Positions 1,963 through 62,559 of a DNA stretch of 64,000 nucleotides are shown here, in pieces. The notes beneath the pieces were generated by a model. The model worked only from the letters and a program-made list of their open reading frames with translations. It did no database searches and was not told the DNA's origin. Position numbers and translations under genes: made by a program. Location of the stretch: contig MU004192.1 in the NCBI GenBank assembly GCA_010093605.1, positions 814,882 to 878,881 on the forward strand, read 5' to 3'. The DNA is from Lophium mytilinum. Lineage: Eukaryota. The stretch's first letter is position 1. Each line of letters opens with the position of its first letter.

Positions 1963-3107
1963 GAGATCTTTTGTTCGAAGGAGCATATCTATGTTTTGTT
2001 GGTTCTGGTGGATGCGTCATGGGTTTTGTTGATTGGCGTATGCATAGCGAAGTATAGCAAGCGTGTTGATATACACATTGCAGTACGTTTATTCGAATTG
2101 ATCTCATCTATCATACTTCTTGTTCTGTGTCGAATAGTGTGCCCATCTACCACCTAGCCCAGTGCTACTCCGCCTTCAAGCCATCTAGAGCTCAGCATAC
2201 CTTCGTACCTCACCTTGGCAGTCCTTTCCTTCTCGTTTCCATGCTTTTGCGGCTTTAGAGTGGGACGGCCTGAAGAGACCTTAGGGCATCAAATTGGGTT
2301 CCCGACAACGCTTTAGACAGCTAATTATAACAGCAAAGACCGTCACAAACATCTAACGTCAAATCTTGACAAAGGTAATCTACCGCTAAGCCCATGGTGG
2401 CTAAGAGATTTGCTGTCTTATAGAACAGGTCAATCAAACGCATACAAATCCTGTTCTTACACTTTATTTAATGCACTATCAACGAAGTCGAGCAATATAC
2501 CCTTTTACTATGCAAAGTGTATTTCCTACTTTTGTACACGCTTTTAAATGGTGTGTCATCAATGGAGTTTAGCACAAGGGGAAGCGGTTTGAGGCTTGAA
2601 GACTTTCAAACTACGTAAAAAGGTTCTTAACACCGATACATGGCGCTATGCCTAGCGTGCCTACCATTCGATTATCACCACCTTCGACAGCGTTAGTAGC
2701 TGCGCGTTACCGCGCGGACTCGTCCGATTAGCCTCCTCTCGTTAAGACATGGTTCGGAGTCTAGCTTCTTGGTTGGCGGAAGTCATGACGTCTGATGGCC
2801 TAAAACGAATCAAGTGCACGAGTCAAAGGCGACACTTCGGGCTCGTCCCGCTAATGCCCCTCACCATTACATGCAGGTCGTCTTAAGTCCGCATGTCTAT
2901 TCTTACAAATGTAGAACTACTTGAAGGGTAAGAGAGGTGTTTGGTGCGTGGTGGTGTATATAGACCCTAAGTTTTTCCTACATGCCTCCTCTTCTCCTCC
3001 GCATCAGCACCCTTTTCTTGTCAAGCATCAAACTAGCAAGAACACATCAATCAACTCATTCTCACATTGCGCAGTATCTTCCTTTACCATTCACAATACA
3101 CCGCACC

Positions 3108-4124
3108 ATGTCTCGCTATGCTGCCGCGCATGCCTCTCCTAATGGAGCTGGTGATGCTCGTCCCACCGCCATCCAGATCCTCGAGGACGAAAACCTCATT
3201 GGCAAGCTTTCCGACAAGGTCATGCTCGTCACAGGTGTCTCCTCCGGCATTGGAATCGAAACATTGCGTGCGTTCCATACCACCGGCGCCCACGTCTTCG
3301 GCACTGTCCGTAACGTTGAGAAGGGCAAGGCTGTTGTCGACAATATCCTGGCCAGCAAAATTCCAACCGGCGGACAAATCACATTGATCGAAATGAGTCT
3401 TGACAGCCTCGAGAGCGTGAGGAAAGGAGCGAAAGACATCCTCAACAAAACCGACAAACTCAACATTCTAGTCAACAACGCCGGTGTGATGGCTTGTCCA
3501 TACGGCAAGTCCGTTGATGGCTTTGAGACGCAGTTCGCAACCAATCACCTCGGTCATTTTCTTCTCTTCAACTTGCTTAGGGATACTCTGCTCGCCTCTG
3601 CGACGCCTGATTTCCCTAGCCGTGTTGTCAGCGTGAGCAGCATCGGCCACCGCGCGGGCAACGTCCGCCTTCAGGACTACAATTTCGAAGAAGAGGGCAG
3701 TTACAGCCCCTGGGCTGGCTATGGACAGTCTAAGACCGCGAATATATGGCTCGCAAACTACATTGAACGCCATTATGGATCGCGGAATTTACACGCCACG
3801 TCTTTGCACCCAGGAGGCATCGACACTGGATTGCAAGTCCATCAACAGGAAATGGTCAACAAGATGAAAGAAAAGCCTGAAGTATTGAGGACTGTGAAGA
3901 GCTCGGAGCAAGGAGCTTCGACGAGCGTCTATGCCGCGTTAAGCGAAGAGTGGAAGGACAAGGGAGGGCGTTATCTAGCAGATTGTGAGGAGCAGCTTGA
4001 GGTGGGGAAGAAGCCAACGCAGGCGCAAGACGCCAATGATGATGGGTACAAGTCCTGGGCGTATGACAGAGATGGGGAGGAGAAGCTGTGGAAGGACTCG
4101 CTCAAGATGGTAGGGTTGGAGTAG
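3108..4124 (+). CDS. Short-chain dehydrogenase/reductase (retinol dehydrogenase/WWOX-like)
   Basis: Likely start MSRYAAAH at 3108. Motifs TGVSSGIG, NNAGVM, FATNHLGHF, catalytic YGQSK and LHPGGI. Confidence 0.92.
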   Translation: MSRYAAAHASPNGAGDARPTAIQILEDENLIGKLSDKVMLVTGVSSGIGIETLRAFHTTGAHVFGTVRNVEKGKAVVDNILASKIPTGGQITLIEMSLDSLESVRKGAKDILNKTDKLNILVNNAGVMACPYGKSVDGFETQFATNHLGHFLLFNLLRDTLLASATPDFPSRVVSVSSIGHRAGNVRLQDYNFEEEGSYSPWAGYGQSKTANIWLANYIERHYGSRNLHATSLHPGGIDTGLQVHQQEMVNKMKEKPEVLRTVKSSEQGASTSVYAALSEEWKDKGGRYLADCEEQLEVGKKPTQAQDANDDGYKSWAYDRDGEEKLWKDSLKMVGLE

Positions 4125-4807
4125 ATGTACTGTGTTCGATGTTTTGTATTTCTTGAAGAGCTTACTACAATCGAAGTTTTGTAACGTCCGCAGTCATAGA
4201 GAAGCACCAGACCTACCAGCTCTCAAAGCCCTTTTCCATCCTCGCACGTGACTCCCCTTTTCCTTCCACAGCCCCCATTCATGTCCGTGCGCTGATCTCC
4301 TTCATGGGGAACGCACGGACAGTGTAATTTATATTACATTAGTAAGCATTGTATAGCACCTCAGCGTCCTGACCTCTGGGCTCAACACGCCTAATGAAAG
4401 CACTCCCATCAGGTGTTCTTCCTAGAGAAACAGCAAAATGGGCTTGGTCAGCGTTTCGTTTGAAATATGCTAACACAGGTTCGGGAACCATGGCGAGGCC
4501 ACCGCTGATCTAATATGGTGAATTCACGCCCTTGATCGATCTCGTTAGCCGCTGAAAGGCGAGCAGCTCTCTCGCAGCGTTCTATTGCGTCAGCAGTGGG
4601 GTCAGGGCTGATCCGAAGGTCGCGGACCGCTTCTCTGGGTTGACGGCTTCTGACGGGAACAAGTTTCTTGTTGACGCGCGCTATGCCGTCGTATGGTTTC
4701 CCATTTACGCAACTAGCAGCTCCTGGACTCGAACTTCTTTCCATTACAACACCCATCCATTCTTCTTGCTAGCGACCATTATCGCTTCAATTTCCTAGGT
4801 TCTGAAG

Positions 4808-24128: not shown

Positions 24129-27100
24129 ATGGCTCCCTCACGCAGTCGCAACGCGCAAGTGGACTCCACAGATGTCTCAACCGCCGACGTGTCTATGAAC
24201 GAGGACACCGAGATGACCGACAACCATGTTTCATCCAACGGCGCCGCGAAATTTGGGGTAAGTGCTCCCCTCGTGAAGTCGCGACGGTGGAGGTCCGTCT
24301 GCCTTCTAACCGCGTCTATACAAGATATCGCACGCATTGTTTCTATACTCATACTGACTCTCAATTTAACAGTACTACCAGGACACGCCAGACTACACGG
24401 TACGCGTCTTTCCGCGTCCATCCCCTCCAACGCGACACGACACTGACAGTTGATGACAGGACTCGGACACCAACCCGAACACCACAGCTAGCAGCGTAGC
24501 AGGAGACGCGCAAGGCCCGGATGGACGCAAGCGCCGGTCAGAGGCGTTCCAGATGCGCAAGAACATCTTTGGCAAGAAGCACGACCGCCTCGGCGAATCA
24601 AAGGTTAGGCTACCCATTTGAACATTTTCGCAAACTTCTCTTATGGTTATACTGACGCGTGTCGTGAATTTGTAGGACGATGATTCCATTAGACGCTTCC
24701 GATACCTGCTCGGTCTCACAGACCTCTTCCGACATTTCATCGATTCAAACCCGAACCCTCGGATCAAGGAGATCATGGCGGAAATCGATCGCCAGAACGC
24801 CGAGGATGAGGCCAAGGCGAAGAGCAATAAGATCCGGAAGGGCGGCGCTGCGGCAGAGCGACGTCGGCGCACCGAACAGGAAGAAGACGCGGAGCTCATT
24901 CGCGAAGAGAAGCGTGGCGGTCATGACGAGACAGTGTTCAGGGAGTCACCAGGATTTGTTCAGGGCGGAACCATGCGCGACTATCAGGTCCAAGGTCTCA
25001 ACTGGCTCATCTCATTACACGAGAACGGTATCTCTGGTATCCTAGCAGATGAGATGGGTCTTGGAAAGACTCTACAGACGATCTCCTTCTTGGGTTACCT
25101 ACGGTTTGTTAAAGGCATACACGGTCCCCATCTCGTGGTTGTTCCCAAATCCACTCTGGACAACTGGAAGCGCGAATTCCACCGCTGGACTCCGGATGTC
25201 AATGTGCTAGTCCTCCAAGGTGCCAAGGAAGAGCGTCAAGCGCTCATCAACGAGCGACTGATCGACGAGAAGTTCGACGTCTGCATTACTAGCTACGAGA
25301 TGATTCTACGTGAGAAGTCTCACCTCAAGAAGTTCGCCTGGGAGTACATTATCATTGATGAGGCCCATCGCATCAAGAACGAAGAGTCCTCTCTAGCGCA
25401 AATCATCCGCGTTTTCAATTCCCGAAACCGTCTTCTCATCACTGGAACTCCGCTTCAAAACAACCTGCACGAGCTTTGGGCCCTCCTCAACTTCCTACTT
25501 CCGGATGTTTTCGGTGAATCGGAAGCGTTTGATCAATGGTTCTCAGGACAGGATGAGGATTCCGATACCGTTGTGCAACAACTTCACAAAGTGCTCCGGC
25601 CCTTCTTGCTCCGCCGCGTCAAAAGCGATGTTGAAAAGTCCCTATTGCCGAAGAAGGAAGTCAACCTCTACATCGGCATGTCGGAAATGCAAGTTAAATG
25701 GTACAAGAAAATCTTGGAAAAGGATATCGATGCCGTAAACGGAGCCGGGGGAAAGAAAGAGTCAAAGACGCGTCTACTCAACATCGTCATGCAACTCCGC
25801 AAGTGCTGCAATCATCCCTATCTCTTCGAAGGCGCTGAACCTGGTCCACCCTACACGACCGACGAGCATCTCGTCCAGAACGCAGCCAAGATGGTCATGC
25901 TCGACAAACTTCTCACGCGCATGAAGCGCCAAGGTAGCCGAGTTCTCATCTTCTCCCAGATGAGTCGCGTGCTCGACATTCTTGAGGATTACTCGGTGAT
26001 GCGCCAGTACCAATACAGCCGTATCGATGGATCCACCGCCCACGAAGACCGTATTGCGGCCATCGATGACTACAACCGAGAAGGTTCCGAGAAGTTCCTA
26101 TTCCTTCTTACCACCCGCGCTGGTGGTTTGGGTATCAACCTGACTAGCGCCGACATCGTCGTTCTTTTTGACAGTGATTGGAATCCTCAAGCAGATCTAC
26201 AGGCCATGGATCGTGCGCATCGTATCGGTCAGACGAAGCAAGTGGTTGTCTTCCGTTTCGTCACCGAAAATGCGATTGAAGAGAAGGTCCTGGAACGCGC
26301 AGCTCAGAAATTACGTCTTGATCAGCTTGTTATCCAACAAGGCCGTGCCCAGCAACCCGTCAAAAATGCCGCTTCCAAGGACGACCTTTTGAACATGATA
26401 CAGCATGGTGCCGAGAAGGTTTTCCAATCACAGGGAGGTGTTGGTGCTGTCGGCGGTTCGGCAGAGCTCACCGATGACGATATTGATGACATTCTCAAGC
26501 GTGGCGAGGAGCGTACGGCAGAACTCAACGCCAAATACGAGAAGCTCGGCCTGGATGATTTGCAGAAATTCACATCGGATTCTGCCTACGAATGGAATGG
26601 CGAGAACTTCCAGCCGCGGAAGAAAGATATCGGTATCAGCTGGATAAACCCTGCCAAGCGCGAGCGCAAAGAGATTGGCTATTCCATGGACAAGTACTAT
26701 CGCCAGGCCTTGATGACAGGTGGTCGAACTGCGGATACGAAACCTAGAATCCCACGAGCACCAAAGCAGATTCAGATCCACGACTATCAGTTCTTCCCCG
26801 ATGAGCTTCACAACCTCCAAGAAAAGGAGACAGCCTTCTACCGCAAGGAGAACAACCTCAAGGCTCCCCTGGCAGAAGGCACTGATGAGGATCTTGAAGC
26901 TCGTGTCGCCGAACAAGAACTTGAGCAGCGAGAAATCGATGATGCTGAGCCATTGACCGAACAGGAAAAAGAGGAGAAAACCAGGCTCATTGCTCAAGGT
27001 TTCCCGGAATGGAACAAGCGCGACTTCCAACAGTTTCTCAATGGTTCTGCCAAGTATGGCCGTCACAACTACGAAGGCATCAATGAGGAGGTTGATGGTA

Positions 27101-27816
27101 AGAACACGGAAGAAATCAAGGCGTACGCCAAGGTATTCTGGAAGAAGTACCAGCAAATCGATAGCTATCAGAAGTATGTTGGCATTGTAGAGGCAGGTGA
27201 AGCAGCGACTCGGAGACTGGAAGACAACCGCAAGCTACTCAAGAGGAAATTGGGCATGTACAGGGTCCCGCTCCAGCAGCTCAGGATCCAGTATACCGTC
27301 TCGACGACCAACAAGAAGGTCTACACCGAGGAAGAGGATCGCTTCTTGCTCATACAGATGGACAAATATGGCATTGAGAGCGAGGGCATCTTTGAAAAGA
27401 TCCGAGACGATATCCGCGAGTCGCCATTGTTCCGCTTTGACTGGTTCTTCCTCAGTCGTACGCCCCAGGAAATCAGCCGACGATGCACAACTCTTCTCAC
27501 TGCTGTCATAAAGGAATTCGAGCCTGAAGCGAAGACCAACGGTAGAGGTCCTGGGAAAGGCAAGCGTGCCGTCGAAGAGGATGAATCGGAGGAAGAAGAG
27601 GATGCTCCAGTCAAGAAGAAGGCTAAGAATGGTGTCAAGGTAAGCATCTCTCTTGATTACAACCTTATTATTACTCCAAAGCTAATATACTATCAGAACA
27701 AGCAACTCGATACCATCAAGGGTAGTAAGGCTACTTCCGTCGCCACCTCCCGGGCTGCTAGTGTAGTCTCCAATGGATCAGCTAAAGGCAAGGGCAAGGG
27801 ACGGGGAAAGAAATAG
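24129..27816 (+). CDS. ISW2: ISWI chromatin-remodelling ATPase; introns 24258-24372, 24400-24459, 24604-24675, 27640-27696
   Basis: SNF2 motifs [30 protein letters not shown] and [24 protein letters not shown] region ([14 protein letters not shown]). Splice sites are canonical. Confidence 0.96.
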
Positions 27817-28639
27817 GCTGAGTCTAATGTCAATCTGATGTGCGGGTGCAGTCCAGCGGTTCGGTGCTGTGGGCCGATCGGGCTTTTACTACAGTACTTC
27901 CTTTCTTTTGCTACTTCTTAGGTGCACCTTGGTCTGGGATGGCGTTCGGCACGAGTAGACGAGCCTGTCTGGGGTAGGGGCTCTGTTTGATATGGGCGTA
28001 CAACTCATGAAGCATGGTATGGTGTCTTTCTCAAGGTGTTGCAGGCCTTTGCTTTTCTTTTTGTATGTCCTACTATTAGGACAAGGAGACAGCTTAGTCT
28101 ACTATTGTGGGGTTTGATCAGCTGAGAATATCAAAGTTGAAATCATGCTTGTTCGAATGTATAGTACCAATATGACCCCGTTCACTGGACATGTACAAAG
28201 ATTGACCATGGTGTATGCGTATGCAACTAAATACTACCGTCTGATGTGATTGCTGCCCTTGAAGAGTCTGGAGAGCTCGCAATGCAATATTGAGCTCATT
28301 CTACTGGTCCTGCTCCTTGGCTTGGCGATCTCGCTCTGAGCGATGACGATGTGGGGCGTCGAGCACCTGCTCAAGATTCTGGAGTTCCCATTTCCTTCCC
28401 CTCCCGACTCCTTCAAATCGCGACTCTCGGCGCAGCTTTGAATCGCCTTAGGATACTTAATCTACCCCAAGTAAAGGATCAGCATCCACTGAAGCCATCG
28501 ACCCCAGGCCTTCGCCCGCACTCTATCGCATTCCCGAACCTTCTGTGAGCCTCCGCGTTCTCGAAACCGTGTCCACGACTCCGACTCTCCGCACACCTCT
28601 ACAGCAAAACACACTACCTATACAGGACCTTACTACAAA

Positions 28640-29814
28640 ATGTCAAACGGCGCGGTCGTCCTCGGCGACGATGACCTCCTCGAACCCACTCTCCAATCCA
28701 TCCTCGACCAAAAGACGCTCCGCTGGATATTCGTCGGAGGCAAAGGCGGCGTGGGTAAGACCACAACCTCATGCTCGCTCGCTATCCAAATGGCCAAGCA
28801 CCGCAAGTCGGTGCTGCTGATATCGACGGACCCGGCACACAATCTCAGCGACGCGTTCAGCCAGAAGTTTGGCAAGGATGCGCGGTTGGTGAATGGCTTT
28901 GACAACCTTAGCGCTATGGAGATTGATCCCAATGGGAGCATACAGGATTTGCTGGCCGCCGGGGGCGATGGGGCTGAGGAGGCTATGGGTGGTATGGGAG
29001 GCATGGGGAACATGATGCAAGATTTGGCGTTCAGTGTATGGCTTTCTCTCTATCTATTCCAAAACATGCACATGGCACATATATTCGAGAGTATCATGCT
29101 AACGGTCATTAGATACCCGGTGTCGACGAAGCCATGTCCTTCGCCGAAGTCCTCAAGCAAGTCAAGTCCCTCTCCTACGAAGTCATAATCTTCGACACAG
29201 CACCGACCGGCCACACGCTCCGCTTCCTGCAGTTCCCAACCGTTATGGAGAAAGCCCTCGCCAAGATCTCCCAGCTTTCTTCGCAGTTCGGCCCTATGCT
29301 TAACGGCATCCTCGGCGCTCGTGGCGGGCTTCCCGGTGGCGGGAATCTAGACGACGTGCTGGAGAAGATGGAGTCGCTGCGCGAGACGATCGCGGAGGTG
29401 AACGGGCAGTTCAAGGACGCGGACATGACGACGTTTGTGTGCGTGTGCATACCTGAGTTCTTGAGCCTGTACGAGACGGAGCGGATGATTCAGGAGCTCT
29501 CGAGCTACGAAATCGATACGCATGCGATTGTAGTGAATCAGCTGCTATTCCCGAAGAAAGATAATCCGTGCGAGCAGTGTAATGCGAGGCGGAAGATGCA
29601 GAAGAAGTATCTGGATCAAATTGAGGAGTTGTATGATGAGTTCAATGTGGTCAAGATGCCGCTGCTGGTGGAGGAGGTTAGAGGAAAGGAGAGGTTGGAG
29701 AAGTGAGTTCGATCTGTTTCTTTCTTTCTGTTACTATTTGTGGCGAGGTGTGCTAATGATATACCGTATAGGTTCAGCGAGATGCTGGTCGAGCCGTTCG
29801 TGCCGCCGGAATAG
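28640..29814 (+). CDS. GET3: ATPase GET3/ASNA1 (tail-anchored protein targeting); introns 29036-29112 and 29703-29771
   Basis: [47 protein letters not shown] and the CEQC zinc motif. Confidence 0.97.
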
Positions 29815-30177: not shown

Positions 30178-31137
30178 TTACTGCTTCTCTTCCTCTTCGA
30201 GCATCACATTTCTATATAAGCTCACCGCCCGCACCTCCTCCACCCACCCCCTCCACGCCTTATCCGCCGTTGCTTCGTTCATCTTCCGACACCCCTTCAT
30301 CCCTTCCTCGTCTAAAAAGTCTAACCCCCCAGATCCCAACCCATGCGCCGCCCGCAGCGTCGCGGCATTACTAAGTATCGCGGCATTCTTGTGCGCGTAG
30401 ATCGCGCGGAACACGGCATCTTGGATGCTTTGCCCGCAGGTGGTGAAACCGTGGTGCCGCATCAGCACGACGAGGTTGTCTGGCAATGCGGAGTCGGCTG
30501 GCGACGTCGGGGAGGCAAAATGCGAGGCGAGTGCCGCGCCGAGGGGAACAGAGTTGACGAGCATGTCGCGTTGGGAGGTTGAGGTGTAGAGGGGGGTTAT
30601 GTCGAAGGTTGGGACGGAGGAACCTAAAGAGGTGGTCAGAAGCTTTCTTCAAGCTTTTTCGGGAGAAGATGGAGTGGAAACGAGTCCCGCAGGTAGCGAG
30701 CACGATAATCTCTCAAGAAGGGACTGTAGGTGAAGAATTGAAAGCTTCAGCATACCTAAGAACCCAGCCATATGAAACGCCGGCTTCAACGGCACTCCGG
30801 CCACCATGAATGGTATCACCGCTTCGGAATGGCTGTGGATCACGCAATTTACCCCTGGAAAGCGCTTGAAGACCTCGCCGTGGATGAAGCGCTCTGAGTA
30901 CCCTTTCTTGGCATTGGGGTCGACGGGGGCGCCGTCGGCGATGTGGTATTCGATTAGGTCTTCGGGGGTTGATACGACGGCTGGCGCCAGGTAGCCGGCC
31001 ATGATGTAGACGGAGGGTTGGTCTGGGTGGCGGATGCTGATATGACCGTAGCCGTCGACGATTGAGGCGTGGTGGAGGATGTGGTTTGCGGTTATGAGGT
31101 CCCGCAGGAGGGAGGGGAGGGGGGAAGAGGGGGCCAT
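30178..31137 (-). CDS. Class II aldolase/adducin-fold protein (putative decarboxylase); intron 30624-30755
   Basis: DLITANHIL...DGYGHISIRHP, YSERFIHGE, CVIHSHS, HMAGFL|GSSVPTFD and VLMRHHGFT (metal-binding His residues). Confidence 0.9.
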
Positions 31138-31816
31138 GGTGGTCTTGGAATGGGTTAGGATATAGTTCCGATTATAGAGAGAGTATAGATCAGAGGAGTT
31201 GATATGGAGATTGAAAAACTATGGATTACCATTGACAGACATGACATAAAATACTTCGATTGAAATCATATTGCTCACCTACAGGTATTCTAGTTGGTAT
31301 GTCTGCAAGAAAGAGACAGATATCGAAAAGGAAGTCTATGAAAAAAGGAAGGGTTCTTCTTGAGGATGTTCTGATATCCCAGAAATATGACGATAGTTAC
31401 AAACTCTTTTCCTCTTGTACAACACAGTCCACAGAGACACAATGACGTCTCAACTCCACCGGTGCATATGCATTAGTCACGTGTATCCCCTAATACACCC
31501 TTTCCGCACGACTTCAGAACGACCCCACAGTTATCCATGCAGATCCAAATCGGAGCGTCAACACCCGCCCACGGCTCCCCGCAACCATCCAGGGGCTTCC
31601 TAGAAGATCACCCGGCTGGGCGGCGCCTCCCGGAGCGCGACAAAGGGCGAGCAGCGAGCAAACGCAACGAGAGACTTTCATCTTGGGCATCAACTTTCAG
31701 GCGTGCACGTGACGCTGGTTTCGACGTCAACGCTTGGTATCCTAAAGCATCAGCGTTAACAACCACGGTATTGAGAAGAAGGAAGAATTGAACTATATCC
31801 TGCAAAAGATACTATC

Positions 31817-32826
31817 ATGGCAGACCATCTCCTCCCCCTTGCTCGCCGAGCCGCAGAGAACAAAACTGCCATCGCCGTGGGTGGTGCCGCAGCTCTGCTT
31901 CTCTTGGTCACAGGCGACTATTGGCAGTGGAAGTCTCTTGGTAAATATGGGCTTCCTTAAACTCAGACTCCAAACACTAATTTACTTCAGGAACGGGAGG
32001 AACACCTCCCACAATCCAAGGCTATGGCCGTATGCGCAAAATGGGCATATGGCGCCTCTTCTATGGTGATGACCTGAAAGACGCCTCTCCTTTGAGTAAA
32101 GAAGGGCCTACCTATCTTGACGGCCCAGTACCCAAGCGGGAGGGTGGGAGAGCGAAGGGGTCACGATGGTATATATATCAATATCCTAGCACTGAAGTTA
32201 CTGCTAAACAAAAACCCCAGGACGATGCCACAGCGCCAAATCGCTGAACCAATCACGCCTAAGGCGCTTGAGGTACACTCATGCCTTTCTTCATTTCCTG
32301 CCTCTTCAACTTTCATTCCAATCTCTCTATCCTCTTTCTACATTCTCTCTACCTCGCACTCATCCTCATACCATCACAGCGTCTCACGACTCTAATGCAC
32401 CGCCTCTCTGCCCTACACCCCGAGATCCTCTCTTACGGCGTCTCGAAAACTGAAGGTGGCACCGGCCATGCTATCTACGCTAACCCGGATCTTCCTACCG
32501 TCAACCCGGATGCCCATAAGATTCGGTACGAGATGGCGCATGTGCACCCGAGCGAGAACTCGCTGCATGTGTATGTGAGCCCCAAGGATGCGAGAGAAGT
32601 GGTGGAAGCGGAGTGGGGTGAACGGTTTCCTGTGAGCTGGATTGCGCCGGCGAGTTGGGTGAGATGATTCCCTAGTTTGTTCCTGTGTTTATCGAGGTGG
32701 ACAGGGGGGCACAAGCTAATGAGTCTGCAGATAATGGTGTATGCGCCGAGGAATGAAGAGGAGGTTGATGTCGTGGAGAGGATCGTTAGAGCGGCGGTGG
32801 GGTGGAATACAGGGGTTAAGATTTGA
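31817..32826 (+). CDS. Fungal luciferase (Luz)-like / DUF5519 protein, 242 aa; exons 31817-31940, 31991-32168, 32221-32272, 32380-32658, 32731-32826
   Basis: Four GT-AG introns give one open frame: N-terminal TM, DYWQWKSLGTGGTPPTIQGY, PKREGGR, PQRQ, SKTE, EMAHVHPSENSLH, DAREVVEAEWGERFP, WIMVYAPRNEEEVDVVERIVRAAVG. The motif order matches the Luz family as I recall it. Confidence 0.85.
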
Positions 32827-33068
32827 GATGAGGGTTGAGGGGTTTGTGATAGGAGTCTTATCGAGTTAATGCAGGTGTTTGATTTTGTGTAATTCCGGCT
32901 TGATGGCGTAGCTTAGTTGGGGAATATCAATCTCGATTTTAATTCATATAGTCTGTTAGGAATAGTCATTAAGAAGAGGGCCTGTTCAAGATCTAAGGCC
33001 AAGAAGCAAGTAAAAGTCGAGAACCAATCAACTCCACGAACGAAATATTAAACATCATCCATCGTAGC

Positions 33069-34548
33069 TCACGCCTGAGCAGCCTTCGCACTTTCCGGCA
33101 GCTCAAAGGCCGCCACCGGCTTCGTCCCCATCGAAATGACCGGACTATTCTTGAACGCGGCCCAGTCATGCGTAAAGAAAGTTTGCGACTTCGAAATCTG
33201 AACCTCCTTCGCCCCTCGCTCTTGCACATTACTGTCGTATTCGTCCACAGCCTCCTTGAGCGTCTTCTCTCCAGACTTGACCTTCTTCATTGCGAGCACG
33301 AAACCGTACGCATCCCCGAAGGCGTTGTTAGCCCCCTGTCCACGATCTAGGTGTACTTAGCTTTGATAGGTGACTGGGGTCAAAGTTAGAACTTACGAAA
33401 CGTCATAGCATGCGCTGCATCGCCCGCCAACGTCGCCCTACCCCCGTGGTTGTCCCACGGTACTGTCTTCCAAATCTTGAGCTGATCCCTGAGCACCTCC
33501 GTGTCATCCGGCGCCCACTCCACCGCCGAGCGGTACGGCTCCGCCCAGTTATCTCTCCGGAAATGCTCCTTTAGTCTCTTCAGTCGGTCAGTCTCATTAT
33601 CATAATCTTCAACGCACTTCGGCGCCCACGTCGAGAGGATCTGGAAACTCCAAGTCTCAGGCCTATCTCGGTCATCCATGTCTAGCACGTTGAGACGGAT
33701 GTAGTGCCCAGACGGGTTAATGGCGATATCGACGAGCGGATGTAGCCGCTCTTTGATGAAGAGGGCTTGCTCGGCTGTGTATTTGGCATTGAAATTCATG
33801 AGCACGAAAGGGAGGACTTCAGCTTGCGCTGCGCGGCCCAGGAGGCACCGTCTAACCTGAGAACTGGCACCGTCAACACCAATGAGGATGCTACCGGCTT
33901 CAGAGGTGCCATCGTCGAAGTGGGCGGTTACGCCGTGGTCGTGATACTCAACATCTGATAGTTTCTTGTTGTACTGGAGAAGTCACGTGTGAATATATAT
34001 TCATCGAGCGGGAGATTCAATTCGGAGCTCACCTGGATATCAAGATTCTCGGCGCACATAGTTCGGATCTTTCGCATGTTGATCTCCTTGCCGCCTGGGA
34101 CCGGAAACTTGAATTCATCTTTCTTGGTCACGCCGTTGTATATAACGATTTCGTCCTTTCCGATGCTCTGGCAGTCAATAGCTGGATCAACTTGACACTC
34201 AGTCAAGCGGTTCGCGAGCTCTTCGGGCAAAAGGTCGCATAGGAAAGGTCGACTCCAGCCGACGGTGAAGGCCCAGTGGCGGGTTGCTTCCACAGACTTG
34301 GCCCTGTCGAAGATGCTGAATGATATGTCGTTCTTAGAGGGAATCAGCACTGTCATATAGACCTTGTTTTTATCTGGGCCTGGATTCGAAGCTTTACCTT
34401 TTTCAAGCCGTGAGCAATCGCGCATCCAGCCGGTCCTATGTCTTGTAAGCATGAACTCCTCACGATGGAAATCACAAAAAGTACCTGCGCCGATAATGAG
34501 AACCTTCAACTGTGCCTCAGTACTCGTATGTCCGTTCATATTGCCCAT
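33069..34548 (-). CDS. FAD-dependent monooxygenase (aromatic hydroxylase family), four introns
   Basis: Spliced KVLIIGA|GPAGCAIAHGLKK (GxGxxG), ILIGVDGASSQVR (DG motif) and TLAGDAAHAMTFH|RGQGANNA (GD motif). Confidence 0.9.
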
Positions 34549-45993: not shown

Positions 45994-47515
45994 AGCCTGA
46001 TTCTGACCTTCCAGATCTCGAAATTCGTTCGCCAATCTTGAAGACGCCTCAAGGATCTTCAAACAGCGTCAAGCTACGAGCAGACAAGTACTGCCAAGCG
46101 CCTGAACTATGCTCTCAGATTTCTATCTCTTCGTTTCCTGTCCATATTACCTACAATCCAGTAATAGGTCCAATTTTGCCCTTCTAGATCTTGACTTTCG
46201 TTCTCAATTTTCATGCTGTTTCAAAGCCCTTCAAACGGCGTCACACCTTAAGCTAAGTCGCGGTATCAACCTCCTTAATCACACTTCTCAGACCGGCAGG
46301 CATTACTATACCGCCCAAATCACTTGCAGCCCCACAGTAGGCCTTATTCCGCCCTTCCAAATCTTAACATCCGTGCACAGAATTCCTGCCATCTTGAAGT
46401 CGCTCAAATAGCGGTAAGATATGCGCAACCTCGCACTATTCACCTCTTAGATTACGTTTCTCAACCTACAAATATCAAATTTATACCTATACCTCCAATT
46501 GTCTCACATGTGGTCTAATTCTGCCCTCTCAGATCTTACCATCCATTCGCAAAACTCCTGCCGTCTTGAAGCCGCTTAAACAGCGGCAAGACAGGCGTAA
46601 ACCTGCATTATTAACCTCCTAGATCACGGTTCTGAACATTCGCATATTAAACTTATATCCATATCGCCGACCACCTTACTTGTAGTCTAATTCCGCCTTA
46701 CCGGTTCTCAACATCTATTCATAAAATTCCTGCCATCTTAAAGCGCCTCAAACAGCGGTAACCCAGGCGCAAATCTGTGCTATCAACCTCCCAGATTACG
46801 CTCCTAAACCCTCAAAATCTTAAATCTATATCTAGATTACCAACCACCTTACATGTAGCCTAATTCTGCCCTCCTAGATCTTTACATCCGTTCAAAACCT
46901 TCCTGCCTTGTTAGAGCGCCTCAAACAGCGTTAAGCCGGTCGCAACCTCGTAGTGTTACCCCTCTAGATCAAGCTCCCAGGTCTTCACCTGCAATTATGC
47001 TATCTAAATCGCTTGCAATCGACCTAGGTCCGATCCCGCTCCTTCTAACCTTTACATCCATCTGAAAAATCTTGGGTATCTTAAGGGCCTTCAAACAGTA
47101 TCAAGCTAGGCGCAAATTCACAGCGCCAACCTCCCAAATTACACTTTAAGATTTTTATATGCAACTCTGCCACCAAACAATACTTGCAGTTAACTTGGGT
47201 CCAATTCCGCTCTTCCTAACCTTTACATCCCTCTGAAAAGATACCCGCCATCTCAAGGGCCTCCAGCCAGTAGCAAGCCAGTCGCAAAGTCTTACTCTTA
47301 ACCTTCCAGATTACGCTCTCAGATCTCTACATGCAATTCTGCCATCAATATCACTTGTGAGGTCCTTAGACCCAATTCCGGTCTTTCAGATCGTGACATC
47401 TGCTCTAAAAATTGCCGATATCTTAAGGTTCTTCAAACAACGTCAAGCCAGGAGCGATTGGGTAGTAGCAACCATCTGAACTACGCCCTCACAGCTATAC
47501 CTCTGATCCTAACAT
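45994..47515. repeat. Diverged ~172-bp tandem array, 9 copies, non-coding
   Basis: The AAACAGCG-like anchor recurs at 46061, 46233, 46406, 46578, 46750, 46923, 47093, 47265 and 47435 (spacing 170-173). Shared blocks AATTCYGCCCT..AGATCTTTACATCC, CCTGCCATCTT and AACCTCCCAGATTACG. Confidence 0.93.
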
Positions 47516-47801: not shown

Positions 47802-48668
47802 TCAATTCTTCTCCGGCATCTGATGCTGCCTCTTCGCATACGCCGTCTCATCCAATTTATCCGCCAATCTACAATTGTCCTCCACCACCCTGCGAATCTC
47901 CTCATGCACACTCCCCTCCAGCCTAACCTTACACCCCTTCGGCAACCACCGCAATATATGAAACGCGTTCGCATAGACGTTCGTCGTGCTCGCCACACTC
48001 CTGTCCTCCGGGAACATATACGGCAAACTTATGCTAAAGCTCTGCAGGTTCCAACAATACCGCAGCCCGAGGCGCACCAGGTCCGCAAACGACTCCAGAA
48101 TATCGTGATGTGTTGGGATTGTGAGTGTAACGTGTTTGATCAGCGACCGGTTGCGCTGCGTGAGCGAGTTGATGCTCGCGAGCGCCGAGTCGAGCCGCAA
48201 CCGGATCGTGTTGTCGCCGTACAGCACGGGGCGCGCCTCGCGGCACACGGTCTTGCACGTCGCGATGAGGGAGGGCGCGAGGGGCTCGGTGGCCGGGTGG
48301 TGCGGGGGCGCGGGTTTGGGGCGGCGGGCGCGGCGTGTTTGGGTCCGGTAGTGGTCGCCGTATTCGTCGACGAGCTCGACCTCCGGGGTGGCTTTGAGGG
48401 AGGTGGGGATGTGGAGGGTGAGGGCTTCGGGTGAGCTCAGAGCGTAGCGGTAGACGTTGAGGCGGAGCTCGGTGGGCAGGTCCATGAAGCGGAATGAGGG
48501 CTCGGGCTCTTGGACGACGAGGGCGGCGGCTTCGAGGGCTTTGGTTGCGCTCGCGGAACGTGTGGTGCGCAGCTTGGGGCTTTTGGACTTCGTGACACGC
48601 TTCGTGGAGCGGGTGGAGGAGGCGCGGCTCGAGGTCCGGCTGATGCGACGGTTGGCGCGTGGAGGCAT
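47802..48668 (-). CDS. Hypothetical protein with F-box-like/2EXR-like motif
   Basis: 288-aa intronless ORF with a basic N-terminus, FRFMDLPTELRLNVYRYAL and LIATCKTVCREARPVLYG. Confidence 0.75.
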   Translation of the reverse strand: MPPRANRRISRTSSRASSTRSTKRVTKSKSPKLRTTRSASATKALEAAALVVQEPEPSFRFMDLPTELRLNVYRYALSSPEALTLHIPTSLKATPEVELVDEYGDHYRTQTRRARRPKPAPPHHPATEPLAPSLIATCKTVCREARPVLYGDNTIRLRLDSALASINSLTQRNRSLIKHVTLTIPTHHDILESFADLVRLGLRYCWNLQSFSISLPYMFPEDRSVASTTNVYANAFHILRWLPKGCKVRLEGSVHEEIRRVVEDNCRLADKLDETAYAKRQHQMPEKN

Positions 48669-49446
48669 TGTGAAGATGTTGAGATGAGTAGAGTCTGTTC
48701 TGGTGACGTAGCGATGGACGAGAGAAAGGATGGATCGGCTTGTCGTTCCAAGACTGCAGAAGATGAATTGAAAGAGAAGGTTGCTGAAGAGTTGAAGAGG
48801 AGAGCAGAAAAGGTTTAAGTACTACACAGGTAAGAATACTGCTATTGTGTTGCTATTGTGATCCTCATGCTATTGTTCCTATAGACGAGAGGGTGAAGAT
48901 GCAGATCCCCGCTGCCACCCCGGTCGAACGAGAGCTTGGCGGGTCACGTGATTAGCAGGCCTGAGCTTGTTCTAGGTACGACTCGATAACGTCCACTATT
49001 GGAAGCTAAGAGAGGGCTTCAGAGGCAGAATGCAAATCGCCGGAGCTAAGGTAGGATGAGATAATATACGGCAAGGCTTTTGACTGTCTCAAGAAAAGCA
49101 ATTCAACCCCCGTTTACCGCCGGCTCCTCTGAGCATCCCACGTCCACGTCTATACACAGTATGAACAGAACAGGTAAGTCTGCCATGAGAAGAAATTAGG
49201 AAGAGTACGATTTGCCCAGTAGGGACCCACTCATGCCAGATGCACACTGAGCCTCCCGCAAAGTTTGGATAATGGATAGTACAGCTTCAACACCCGTGAA
49301 CCCGTCGAAAAGCAAAGCACCGTGGCCGTCAAAAGCCTCCTTTGGCAGACCTATGAGTGGCCTCTGAAGGCAGAAGGGGATACAAAATCACTCTGGAAAC
49401 GCTCTAAGCACCCAACACAAGGAAAACACATGAGCCAACCAAGACC

Positions 49447-60500: not shown

Positions 60501-61323
60501 AAACCTCAACACCACGAAAGCACAGCGGAACGGCGCCGCACGGCACGGTGACGACGAATGGAGTGATGTGGCATCAGGGCAGTAGCAGTGGCGGGTATGA
60601 CTGACTCAACTTGCTACTGCATCCTTCGCTCTCTAGCTTCGCCCGCTGGACGCCGTTGGACGGGTGTAGTTCAAAAGCATGCACTAAGAGAGACGTTGCC
60701 GGCCTAACGTAGTTTCTATTTTCTCACTGATTGGCGCTGATTGTAAGCCGGATTCCTGGGGAGATGATTGGGTCGTTTGGGGGTTGCATGCCAAATGCTT
60801 CATCGCTTCGTTGCACCGTACTCTTATCTACAATCTTCTGTAAGCTTACTTCCACAACACGCATCTACATGTCCCTCGCTAACACTAGCCAGCCGGATCC
60901 AGTTACCATACCATACAGACTGCTTGAGCTAGAGGAGGGAGAGAGTTTGGCTGTTGTTGGACTGGGCGATGTACGTAAATCTCGTAAGATGCTGGGCCCA
61001 CCCTGCCATCGGCCGATGCGGGAGTGAGTAAGCAGCGTACCTGGAGGAGTAGGCACAACGGCAGCATTGCAAGGGTTCGCTGAGGGTTTAAGATGCAAAT
61101 CCGCGGGATAGAAGCTATAGGTGTGTATATAAGATGATTGGTAAGTGACGCATTTCGTACCGTTCATCAGTGTGCTTCATACATCGTCAACATCTACTAT
61201 ACACCATCTATCTCTTCAACTTCAAGACATTCTCAGAAAGAGAGCAACACCATACATATCATCAAGCTTCACAACCTTCCACACCCCACTGATTCGCCAA
61301 ACCCCCTCCCCCATCCCACCACA

Positions 61324-62559
61324 ATGCCCAACCTCACCCCCTCCCAAACCGCCATCATCAAATCCACCGCCCCCCTCCTCGCCACCCACGGCACCACCAT
61401 AACAACCCTCTTCTACAGCACCCTCCTCACCACCCACCCGGCCCTCAAATCCGTCTTCAGCAACACCCACCAAGCCACGGGCGCGCAGCCCCGCGCCCTC
61501 GCCGGCGCCCTCCTCGCCTACGCCACCCACATCGACGACCTGGGCGCCCTCTCCCCAACCCTCGCCCTCATCTGCGCCAAGCACGCCTCCCTCGGCATCA
61601 CGCCCGCGCAGTACGCCGTCGTGGCCACCGGCCTGCTCGCGGCTCTCGAAGACGTCCTCACGCCCGCCGTCTTCACCGCGGATGTCAAAGACGCGTGGGC
61701 CGCTGCGTACTGGCAGCTCGCCGACATCATGATCGCCGCCGAAGCCGCGCTCTACGCCTCGGCGAGCTGGCAGGGCTTCCGCGCCTTCAAGATCGCGCGG
61801 AAAGAGGTCGAGAGCGCCGAGATCACGAGTTTCTACCTCGAGCCCGTCGAGGGGGAGAGGGTGTTGCCGGTGTATAAGCCGGGCCAGTATGTGAGCGTGC
61901 AGGTGGCTGTTCCGGCGCTTGGCGAGGGCGTGTTGCAGGCGCGGCAGTACAGTCTGAGCGACGCGCCGGGGAAGCCGTATTTCCGGATTTCGGTGAAGCG
62001 CGAGAGTGGGTACGAGAGTGCGGCGGCGGCACCGGGGAAGGAGAAGCTGCATCCCGGGTGGGTGTCGAATATCCTGCATGCGGAGAAGGGGGTCGGGGAT
62101 GTGGTGGGGGTTGCGCATCCGTATGGGGATTTTTTTCTGGAGGTGCAGGGGGAGGGGCCGGTGGTGCTGATATCTGGGGGCGTGGGGTTGACGAGTTTGA
62201 TGGCGATGTTGAATGCGTTGGTGGAGCGGGGGGCTGGGAGGGAGGTGACGTGGGTGCATTCGGCGAGGAACGCGAGTGTGAGGGCGTTTGGGGCGCATGT
62301 GGAGGAGGTGGAGAGGGCGGCGGGGAACGTGAGGGTGAGGTTGTTTGATACGCATGGCGGAAGAATGGAGTTGGGGGAGTTGGATAAAGAGAAGGAACTT
62401 TTCTTGGGGGATGAGCGGGCGGAGTATTTCGTCTGTGGGCCCGCGCAGTTTATGCTGGATGTAGAGACGAAGCTAAAGGGTTATGGAGTGGACGCTGGCC
62501 GGATCAAGATGGAGCTGTTCGGTACAGGAGGTGTGCCTAGGGGTTTGTCGAAGATTTGA
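61324..62559 (+). CDS. YHB1: Flavohemoglobin (nitric oxide dioxygenase), intronless
   Basis: Globin domain (IIKSTAPLL, QPRALA, ICAKHASLGITPAQY), FAD domain (YKPGQY, RQYSLSD) and NAD domain (ISGGVGLT, VCGP, ELFG). Start MPNLT at 61324. Confidence 0.96.
   Translation: MPNLTPSQTAIIKSTAPLLATHGTTITTLFYSTLLTTHPALKSVFSNTHQATGAQPRALAGALLAYATHIDDLGALSPTLALICAKHASLGITPAQYAVVATGLLAALEDVLTPAVFTADVKDAWAAAYWQLADIMIAAEAALYASASWQGFRAFKIARKEVESAEITSFYLEPVEGERVLPVYKPGQYVSVQVAVPALGEGVLQARQYSLSDAPGKPYFRISVKRESGYESAAAAPGKEKLHPGWVSNILHAEKGVGDVVGVAHPYGDFFLEVQGEGPVVLISGGVGLTSLMAMLNALVERGAGREVTWVHSARNASVRAFGAHVEEVERAAGNVRVRLFDTHGGRMELGELDKEKELFLGDERAEYFVCGPAQFMLDVETKLKGYGVDAGRIKMELFGTGGVPRGLSKI

Follow-up and report, generated by a model that had tools for sequence, protein, structure and literature searches.

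What would a relative of the luciferase of luminous mushrooms be doing in an ascomycete, standing between a gene for an aldolase-fold protein and a gene for a flavin monooxygenase (FMO)? The question is raised by a 64-kb stretch of DNA (hereafter the window) of Lophium mytilinum, a fungus placed in the Mytilinidiales, Dothideomycetes. Positions 30178-34548 of this Lophium mytilinum-like Dothideomycete window hold three intact, transcribed genes: aldolase-fold (- strand), Luz-like (+) and FMO (-). The same trio recurs in other members of the subclass Pleosporomycetidae. The chances are about even, in our judgement, that it constitutes a conserved oxidative module of the Pleosporomycetidae (Mytilinidiales and Pleosporales) that emits no light and whose substrate is a hydroxylated carboxylic acid of the aromatic, pyrone or pyridine kind.

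The literature leaves room for such a locus. As far as the accessible text of PMC6294908 goes, nnLuz (the luciferase that it describes) has no described homologues, and non-luminous reactions of unknown nature served as stepping stones in the evolution of bioluminescence; ascomycetes, according to the accessible part of PMC11766655, are not known to carry bioluminescence gene clusters, and the portion at hand of one paper on fungal luciferase reports no luz homologue in Xylaria hypoxylon. No publication was found on ascomycete Luz-family genes, or on the Pfam family PF17648 by name; the luz trees published in supplements may include non-luminous homologues. PF17648 itself is already in Pfam; it is the conserved decarboxylase-Luz-FMO arrangement in Dothideomycetes that appears to be new. 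An expressed and conserved ascomycete locus for a Luz protein, a hydroxylase and a putative ring decarboxylase offers a concrete three-gene test system for the stepping-stone question.

Gene structure and transcription

Gene models were built from the window sequence and from orthologues, and were then compared with the contigs of one public run; family calls rely on Pfam, applied to exon-wise translations. The run is not recorded as RNA, and it is the presence of 11 GT..AG or CT..AC joints in its contigs that identifies them as RNA-derived. These contigs establish the transcription of all three genes, although their depth cannot rank the genes against one another, and in them the Luz-like and FMO genes, with four introns apiece, are spliced at every intron exactly as the models have it. 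The three enzyme families that the initial annotation had named from the letters of the DNA are found by Pfam where it had placed them: Aldolase_II (PF00596), the Luciferase domain (PF17648) and FAD_binding_3 (PF01494). Its estimates of the spacing (~680 and ~240 bp) were close: 679 bp lie between the divergent ATGs of the aldolase and Luz-like genes (31137 and 31817), and 242 bp between the convergent stops of the Luz-like and FMO genes (32826 and 33069).

The Luz-like gene (coding sequence (CDS) 31817..32826, + strand) has five exons and specifies 242 amino acids. Exon 1 (31817..31940, with an RNA joint 31940/31991) encodes the predicted N-terminal membrane helix; exon 2 (31991..32168) matches the Mytilinidion resinicola orthologue P0001 through GSRWTMPQRQ; exon 3 (32221..32272) is bounded, like exon 2, by RNA joints. 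The family domain is divided between exon 4 (32380..32658), which carries the first half of PF17648 (E 2.3e-12) with the motif E-x-x-H-x-H...S-x-H and is 91% identical to P0001, and exon 5 (32731..32826; RNA joint), which carries the second half (E 2.2e-07) and the stop codon. The spliced product is 92.1% identical to P0001.

The FMO gene (CDS 34548..33069, - strand) likewise has five exons, for 418 amino acids in the spliced product. Exon 1 (34484..34548) starts with the ATG at 34548; in the spliced translation exon 2 (34398..34434) supplies the end of a GAGPAG dinucleotide-binding motif; exon 3 (34033..34332) follows; exon 4 (33397..33973) provides the main FAD_binding_3 part (PF01494 E 1.6e-05) with 95% identity to the orthologue P0009; and exon 5 (33069..33346), which also matches P0009, ends with the stop. 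RNA joints delimit exons 1 to 3, and a further one (33346/33397) connects exons 4 and 5. Spliced product and P0009 are 96.7% identical.

The aldolase-fold gene (CDS 31137..30178, - strand) has one CDS intron and a product of 275 amino acids. Exon 1 (30756..31137, with the ATG at 31137) matches Aldolase_II at E 8.9e-15; exon 2 (30178..30623) contains the C-terminal part of the domain (E 9.6e-06) and the stop. Between them lies a GT..AG intron of 132 nt (30624..30755), which has an in-frame stop in the read-through translation and is missing at this place from the Pleosporales-like homologues described below. The spliced translation, exon 1 included, is identical letter for letter (100%) with the Lophium mytilinum protein P0110. 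A second intron, of 135 nt (31144..31278, - strand, CT..AC), lies in the 5' untranslated region; there the transcript contig, which extends to 31402, joins 31143 to 31279. Of the 679-bp divergent intergenic region (31138..31816), the RNA contigs leave only ~31403-31543 uncovered. Protein searches return no 100% match for the Luz-like protein or the FMO of the window, the best being those of M. resinicola (91% and 95%, respectively); these two genes may be missing from public annotation or differently modelled there.

A neighbourhood kept in Pleosporomycetidae

Seven Luz-like proteins were aligned, and a scan of metagenome contigs with this alignment yielded 22 loci, which were then searched with the three proteins. 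Loci L001-L011, L014, L015 and L020-L022 have their best matches in Alternaria, Ascochyta or Parastagonospora at 68-99% identity and are therefore Pleosporales-like; 14 Pleosporales-like loci, compared by DNA, resolve into 12 types at 97% identity. The full arrangement of aldolase (-), Luz-like (+) and FMO (+) genes is present in eight distinct types (L001, L003, L004, L005, L007, L008, L009, which equals L010, and L011). The aldolase and Luz-like genes are followed by the end of the contig in L006, L020 and L022, and the Luz-like and FMO genes lie together on contigs that start inside the Luz-like gene in L014 (of the same type as L008), L015 and L021; L002, L012, L016 and L017 are too short for a test of neighbourhood. 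Among the Pleosporales-like loci with enough flanking sequence, none is without a partner. The orientation of the FMO gene in the window is inverted with respect to that in Pleosporales, with its adjacency kept.

Annotated genomes point in the same direction. Two Alternaria gene models (P0045 and P0053; 616 and 625 amino acids) run from the Luz-like gene into the FMO; because they skip the first GxG residues of the FMO, the most likely explanation is that the annotations of tandem genes have been merged. In M. resinicola the contigs that carry the three orthologues are all of one size (2,151,008 bp), and so in Lepidopterella palustris are those of the Luz-like and FMO genes (83,042 bp); in both species equality of size is what indicates that the contig is the same one. 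The co-occurrence in other genomes on which the initial annotation had made its case depend is thus a fact within the Pleosporomycetidae, with the trio in eight contig types. Orthologues are also present in Parastagonospora, Alternaria, Ascochyta and Bipolaris, and in two Sordariales, Echria macrotheca and Lasiosphaeris hirsuta, the contigs with the aldolase and FMO homologues are of the same size.

The coding sequences differ in their interruptions. In L001-L011 the aldolase and the Luz-like protein (from residue ~40) are each covered by a single unbroken tblastn segment, and so is the FMO, except in L011; the genes of the window have four introns each in Luz-like and FMO, and one CDS intron in the aldolase.

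The divergent aldolase/Luz-like intergenic region contains a conserved word. The 9-mer CCCCGCAAC occupies positions 31577-31585 of the window, where it has no other site in the whole 64 kb, and has a count of seven over the 12 intergenic sequences, that of the window included; its 7-mer core is found in eight of the 11 Pleosporales-like loci. Only seven 9-mers of this kind are conserved in at least six of those 11 loci. When 676-bp windows are slid along the 64 kb, three of 317 hold one conserved 9-mer, and since CCCCGCAAC has its single position there, these three should be the ones that cover 31577. The word GTTGCGGGGA, present in the window as its reverse complement, is located at 9617 in L003, 1369 in L004, 1334 in L005, 1243 in L006 and 9406 in L020, among others, so that its orientation relative to the Luz-like gene in the window is opposite to that in the Pleosporales-like loci. 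The conserved promoter word is a candidate regulator site.

Family relationships of the three proteins

Membership of the Luz-like protein in PF17648 is secure at the level of scores: the exons in the window, with 47.4 and 31.4 bits, exceed the cut-off of 23.7, and the orthologue P0001 reaches 81.6 bits (E 4.7e-23). The AlphaFold model of P0001 (predicted local distance difference test score, pLDDT, 96.1) has a helix at residues 16-40, over the hydrophobic stretch at the N-terminus, and the protein is accordingly predicted to be membrane-anchored. The available part of PMC6294908 describes nnLuz as a protein of about 240-270 amino acids with an N-terminal transmembrane helix. Conserved columns were taken from a 100-sequence alignment (A2) of the Luz family; 23 of the 24 columns that are invariant or conserved in at least 90% are kept in the window protein, which has A rather than P at position 96. 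The polar residues retained across the family and in the window are R106, E169, H172, H174, S179, H181, D188, R218 and E222, and the E-x-x-H-x-H...S-x-H group is among the residues kept. In a quick tree of 111 chosen rows the trio-linked Luz-like proteins make up one clade (SH-like approximate likelihood ratio test, SH-aLRT, 96).

The family is large: its representatives number at least 970 at E<=1e-3, and 450 when the limit is E<=1e-10. It is mostly ascomycete in the Atlas clusters shown. Over-long gene models hint at other recurrent neighbours of Luz-family genes: among 20 such representatives, FAA_hydrolase is fused or merged in P0309 and P0334, and Zn2Cys6 regulators in P0244 and P0276. 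Caffeylpyruvate hydrolase, by which luminous fungi recycle oxyluciferin, belongs to the FAA hydrolase family (PMC11766655, in its accessible part). The Atlas also contains clusters that combine PF17648 with Abhydrolase_2 (bacterial, Actinomycetota) and with an ABM monooxygenase domain (no recorded taxa). FAA_hydrolase, ABM and Abhydrolase_2 partners would suit an enzyme that makes ring-opened keto acids; they are leads rather than tests. Outside the fungi, 301 genomes of one bacterial phylum were sampled, and 17 of them have PF17648 above the cut-off, as does Haloferax volcanii among the controls; the prokaryotic proteins are mostly 119-220 amino acids long. Scanning of the bacterial genomes with another alignment (A1) gave two weak matches, which were rejected: their genomes hold no PF17648 match.

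The FMO has the sequence characters of a typical group A flavoprotein monooxygenase. P0009, the orthologue, matches PF01494 with 62.9 bits, and the spliced protein of the window contains GAGPAG, GVDGASS and GDAAH; GxGxxG, DG and GD are the fingerprints of group A. Similarity of a generic kind extends to HpxO, salicylate hydroxylase, TetX, NicC, SorC and AfoD.

That the third gene encodes something close to a decarboxylase had been suspected from the beginning, and the resemblance holds up. The aldolase-fold protein matches PF00596 at E 9e-24, and its best solved relative, at full length, is Mlr6791 (PDB 2z7b; E 3.9e-38; query residues 10-262 against chain residues 41-268), which we take to be the 3-hydroxy-2-methylpyridine-dicarboxylate decarboxylase (HMPDdc) of the vitamin B6 pathway. 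The H-x-H and a third His further on are metal ligands in the class II aldolase fold, and they are kept: the HSH segment (in the part encoded by exon 1) and the RHHG segment align with HTH and RHG of 2z7b. The best NCBIfam model is that of the 3,4-dihydroxyphthalate decarboxylase PhtC (NF053537; E 4.6e-15), with a score (55.7 bits) so far below the 200-bit cut-off that the protein does not qualify as a PhtC equivalog. P0168, which has 65% identity over exon 1, bears the name 'Decarboxylase tropJ' in its source, which is a source annotation only. Since these are the matches, the nearest characterised relatives are ring decarboxylases and not sugar aldolases, and it is the former that the protein, judged by alignment, resembles. 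That Pleosporales might have a different paralogue of the aldolase was considered and rejected. Among named proteins the Pleosporales aldolase is closest to P0219, also of Pleosporales, and after it to the Glonium and Mytilinidion orthologues.

A proposed dark oxidative module and its rivals

From these resemblances we infer the catalytic steps, their order and the nature of the substrate. The metal-dependent aldolase-fold enzyme would come first, taking a ring carboxyl next to a hydroxyl off non-oxidatively, in the manner of HMPDdc and PhtC. The group A monooxygenase would then use NAD(P)H and FAD to put a hydroxyl ortho to the one already there, the action of H3H on hispidin being the model. 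In the third step the membrane-anchored Luz-like protein, acting free of cofactors, would add O2 to the electron-rich ring, with cleavage of a C-C bond and loss of CO2; this would be the chemistry of fungal luciferase on 3-hydroxyhispidin, minus useful light. The succession of H3H and Luz on hispidin in luminous fungi (PMC6294908, as far as its accessible text goes) is the precedent. Alternatively, the keto acid produced by ring opening might be the substrate of the decarboxylase, which would then be the last enzyme to act and would do what FAH-family hydrolases appear to do in the vicinity of other Luz-family members.

How does such a module compare with systems that are known? The Mesorhizobium loti pathway of vitamin B6 degradation uses HMPDdc (Mlr6791) and then the FAD oxygenase MHPCO; the flavoenzyme opens the ring itself and no Luz-family protein participates. 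The likeness consists in a pair of enzymes, an aldolase-fold ring decarboxylase and a group A flavin monooxygenase, for a heteroaromatic acid that bears a hydroxyl; the differences are that the host is bacterial and that the 32 PDB entries matched by the FMO at E<=1e-5 do not include MHPCO. The substrate that PhtC decarboxylates is an aromatic acid with an ortho-hydroxyl; its model is the best for the aldolase-fold protein, which differs by the shortfall of score already given. The luz-h3h(-hisps-cph) clusters of luminous Agaricales (PMC6294908 and PMC7733832, each in the part available) likewise place a PF17648 protein of about 240-270 amino acids, with an N-terminal membrane helix, beside a group A FMO, and the links of other Luz-family members to FAH-family hydrolases recall cph, which is of that family. 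The trio differs in belonging to an ascomycete, in having no hispidin synthase or polyketide synthase (PKS), in its third partner, the putative aldolase-fold decarboxylase, and in that no light is expected of it; its Luz-like protein is in a separate clade of PF17648. In the PDB and NCBIfam its FMO matches only general group A hydroxylases.

Several observations weigh against the module. With known hydroxylases the FMO shares no more than a generic similarity (best PDB match E 2.1e-15), and all its NCBIfam matches fall far under their cut-offs. The oxygenase role of the Luz-like protein is carried over by analogy from one characterised branch of a large family. In the only RNA contig listed over it, the 132-nt CDS intron of the aldolase gene is retained, with its in-frame stop, while the intron in the 5' untranslated region is spliced in the same contig; low expression with a retained intron is one possible cause, an artefact of assembly another. 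The remaining points on this side concern the neighbourhood and the fold of the Luz-like protein, and favour particular rivals.

The rival that survives best, if still somewhat unlikely, has it that the three genes are functionally unrelated neighbours, an ISWI-GET3-aldolase-Luz-FMO block having been inherited in Pleosporomycetidae with few rearrangements. On the upstream side of the trio the window has an amidase gene, the ISWI chromatin remodeller (24676-27816; its ATPase, of 1046 amino acids, is the longest open reading frame (ORF) of the window) and GET3 (28493-29706). As in the window, the trio adjoins ISWI (77-79% identical) and GET3 (about 89%) in L003, L008 and L009/L010; in L007 it adjoins only GET3. 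Part of the adjacency is therefore plain inherited block synteny, and since the region as a whole evolves slowly, adjacency alone is no proof of a functional link. All trio-positive loci are from one subclass, Pleosporomycetidae. The adjacency of the FMO is lost in the Glonium-like locus L013 (N-terminus of its aldolase 82% identical to that of Glonium stellatum), where the divergent aldolase-Luz pair is followed by a gene of VOC/glyoxalase fold (2712-3452), with no FMO within 8 kb. Locus L018, assigned to the lineage of L013 because the VOC proteins are 97% identical, has the VOC gene (3511-4203) and neither trio partner, lacking an aldolase upstream as well as the FMO; the best PDB matches of these VOC proteins are a glyoxalase and dioxygenase-type entries. 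The distant family member in L019 is also without both partners. Finally, no word shared with the aldolase-Luz intergenic region turned up upstream of the FMO.

Against mere inheritance of a block stands the fact that the flanks outside the trio all vary. Downstream the neighbours are a small secreted-type ORF and a choline sulfatase gene in the window, a GMC oxidoreductase gene in L010, a dynamin-like gene in L005 and an Asp protease gene in L014. Upstream, Pleosporales have an additional, inserted lipase gene, L003 has the GET3-lipase block in inverted orientation, and L020 has amidase and HET genes; the FMO gene has flipped without leaving. That the trio is kept while its flanks and the orientation of the FMO change speaks for a real link, and so do the 9-mer of the divergent aldolase-Luz promoter, kept across orders, and enzyme types that would fit one chemical sequence and mirror the h3h-luz pairing (PMC6294908, accessible part). 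The initial annotation had proposed a module that hydroxylates, opens and then decarboxylates or cleaves a pyrone or hydroxy-aromatic compound. It stands as regards families, decarboxylase resemblance, co-occurrence and the absence of a PKS, and is weakened by the ISWI/GET3 synteny and by L013.

A second rival, improbable in our estimate, makes the trio a tailoring sub-cluster for a secondary metabolite with its core synthase elsewhere, on the pattern of the tropolone FMO and a TropJ-type decarboxylase. The source name of the aldolase-fold homologue P0168 is in its favour, as is the presence of the dearomatising SorC and AfoD among the weak PDB matches of the FMO. A flavin monooxygenase, TropB, performs the first tropolone step, and the combination of flavin monooxygenase and decarboxylase is what the two systems share; the trio differs in having no non-reducing PKS, TropC or TropD nearby. 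TropJ is the decarboxylase in stipitatic acid biosynthesis, according to the available part of PMC12006828. The domain scan of the window covered 30 of its 93 ORFs of at least 130 amino acids, and in these there is no PKS, nonribosomal peptide synthetase (NRPS), terpene synthase, transporter, Zn2Cys6 or pathway regulator; the genes next to the trio in the metagenome loci include no PKS, NRPS, terpene synthase, transporter or pathway regulator either. The immediate neighbours are housekeeping genes, and strict conservation over many Pleosporales would be less typical of secondary-metabolite clusters.

Still more doubtful is a third rival, in which the PF17648 protein is here no oxygenase at all, serving as a membrane protein for binding, sensing or scaffolding while its neighbours work without it. 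Its appeal lies in the absence of a clear solved fold relative of the Luz-like model that would indicate its chemistry, a further point against the module. Foldseek with the P0001 model finds no match in the PDB at E<=0.001, and a PDB sequence search with the Luz-like protein finds none that is meaningful; in the wide search of VIA-align the best hit (DUF419, 2a1v) has Z 6.5, followed by YjbR and frataxin-like small alpha/beta domains, and as Z 6.5 is inside the range that VIA-align calls common, no fold is assigned. The bacterial homologues, besides being small, are no help to the module either: in eight inspected PF17648 loci, in five of which the PF17648 gene itself was recovered, there is no FMO, oxygenase, aldolase/decarboxylase, FAH or VOC neighbour; a TetR regulator is adjacent in two, efflux-type genes are nearby in two, and the genes are otherwise unrelated, so that these loci say nothing on function. 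Catalysis is argued for by the polar residues conserved throughout the family and in the window protein, by the fusions to ABM and hydrolase domains and the FAH-fused gene models, and by the sole characterised family member, which is an enzyme (PMC6294908, in the part available).

That the trio is a functional bioluminescence cluster, as its adjoining Luz-family and flavin monooxygenase genes might suggest, is extremely improbable: the scanned ORFs include no hispidin synthase or PKS, from which it follows that this is not a luciferin-making, light-emitting cluster, the initial annotation had for the same lack claimed no light emission, and the 2024 review, in its accessible part (PMC11766655), states that no report of a luminous ascomycete is substantiated.

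The proposed oxidative module invites a wider idea, which we put forward tentatively and consider unlikely rather than likely. The pairing of an FMO with a Luz-family protein might be an old, non-luminous fungal way of breaking hydroxylated rings with O2 free of cofactors, mushroom bioluminescence might be a late offshoot of it, and the Dothideomycete trio might be the first tractable 'dark' example of the ancestral reaction; its Luz-like enzyme could prove to be a new dioxygenase that cleaves rings without a cofactor and perhaps gives chemiluminescence with its own substrate. Were the Luz-like protein indeed a cofactor-free ring-cleaving oxygenase, a general function would be defined for a family with hundreds of uncharacterised members, and new luciferase-like or biocatalytic enzymes could come of it.

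The rest of the window provides some minor observations. A 172-bp tandem repeat forms two adjacent arrays at 46346-47385 (3.5 and 2.0 copies, 72-74% matches), which fall in the bin whose C-over-G skew (-0.398) is stronger than that of any other in the window, and lie just upstream of a DUF7730/2EXR gene (47802-48821). The segment 54001-58000 is GC-rich (0.60-0.625), with overlapping long ORFs on both strands, and a gene of flavohaemoglobin type (Globin and NAD_binding_1) is located at 61138-62559.

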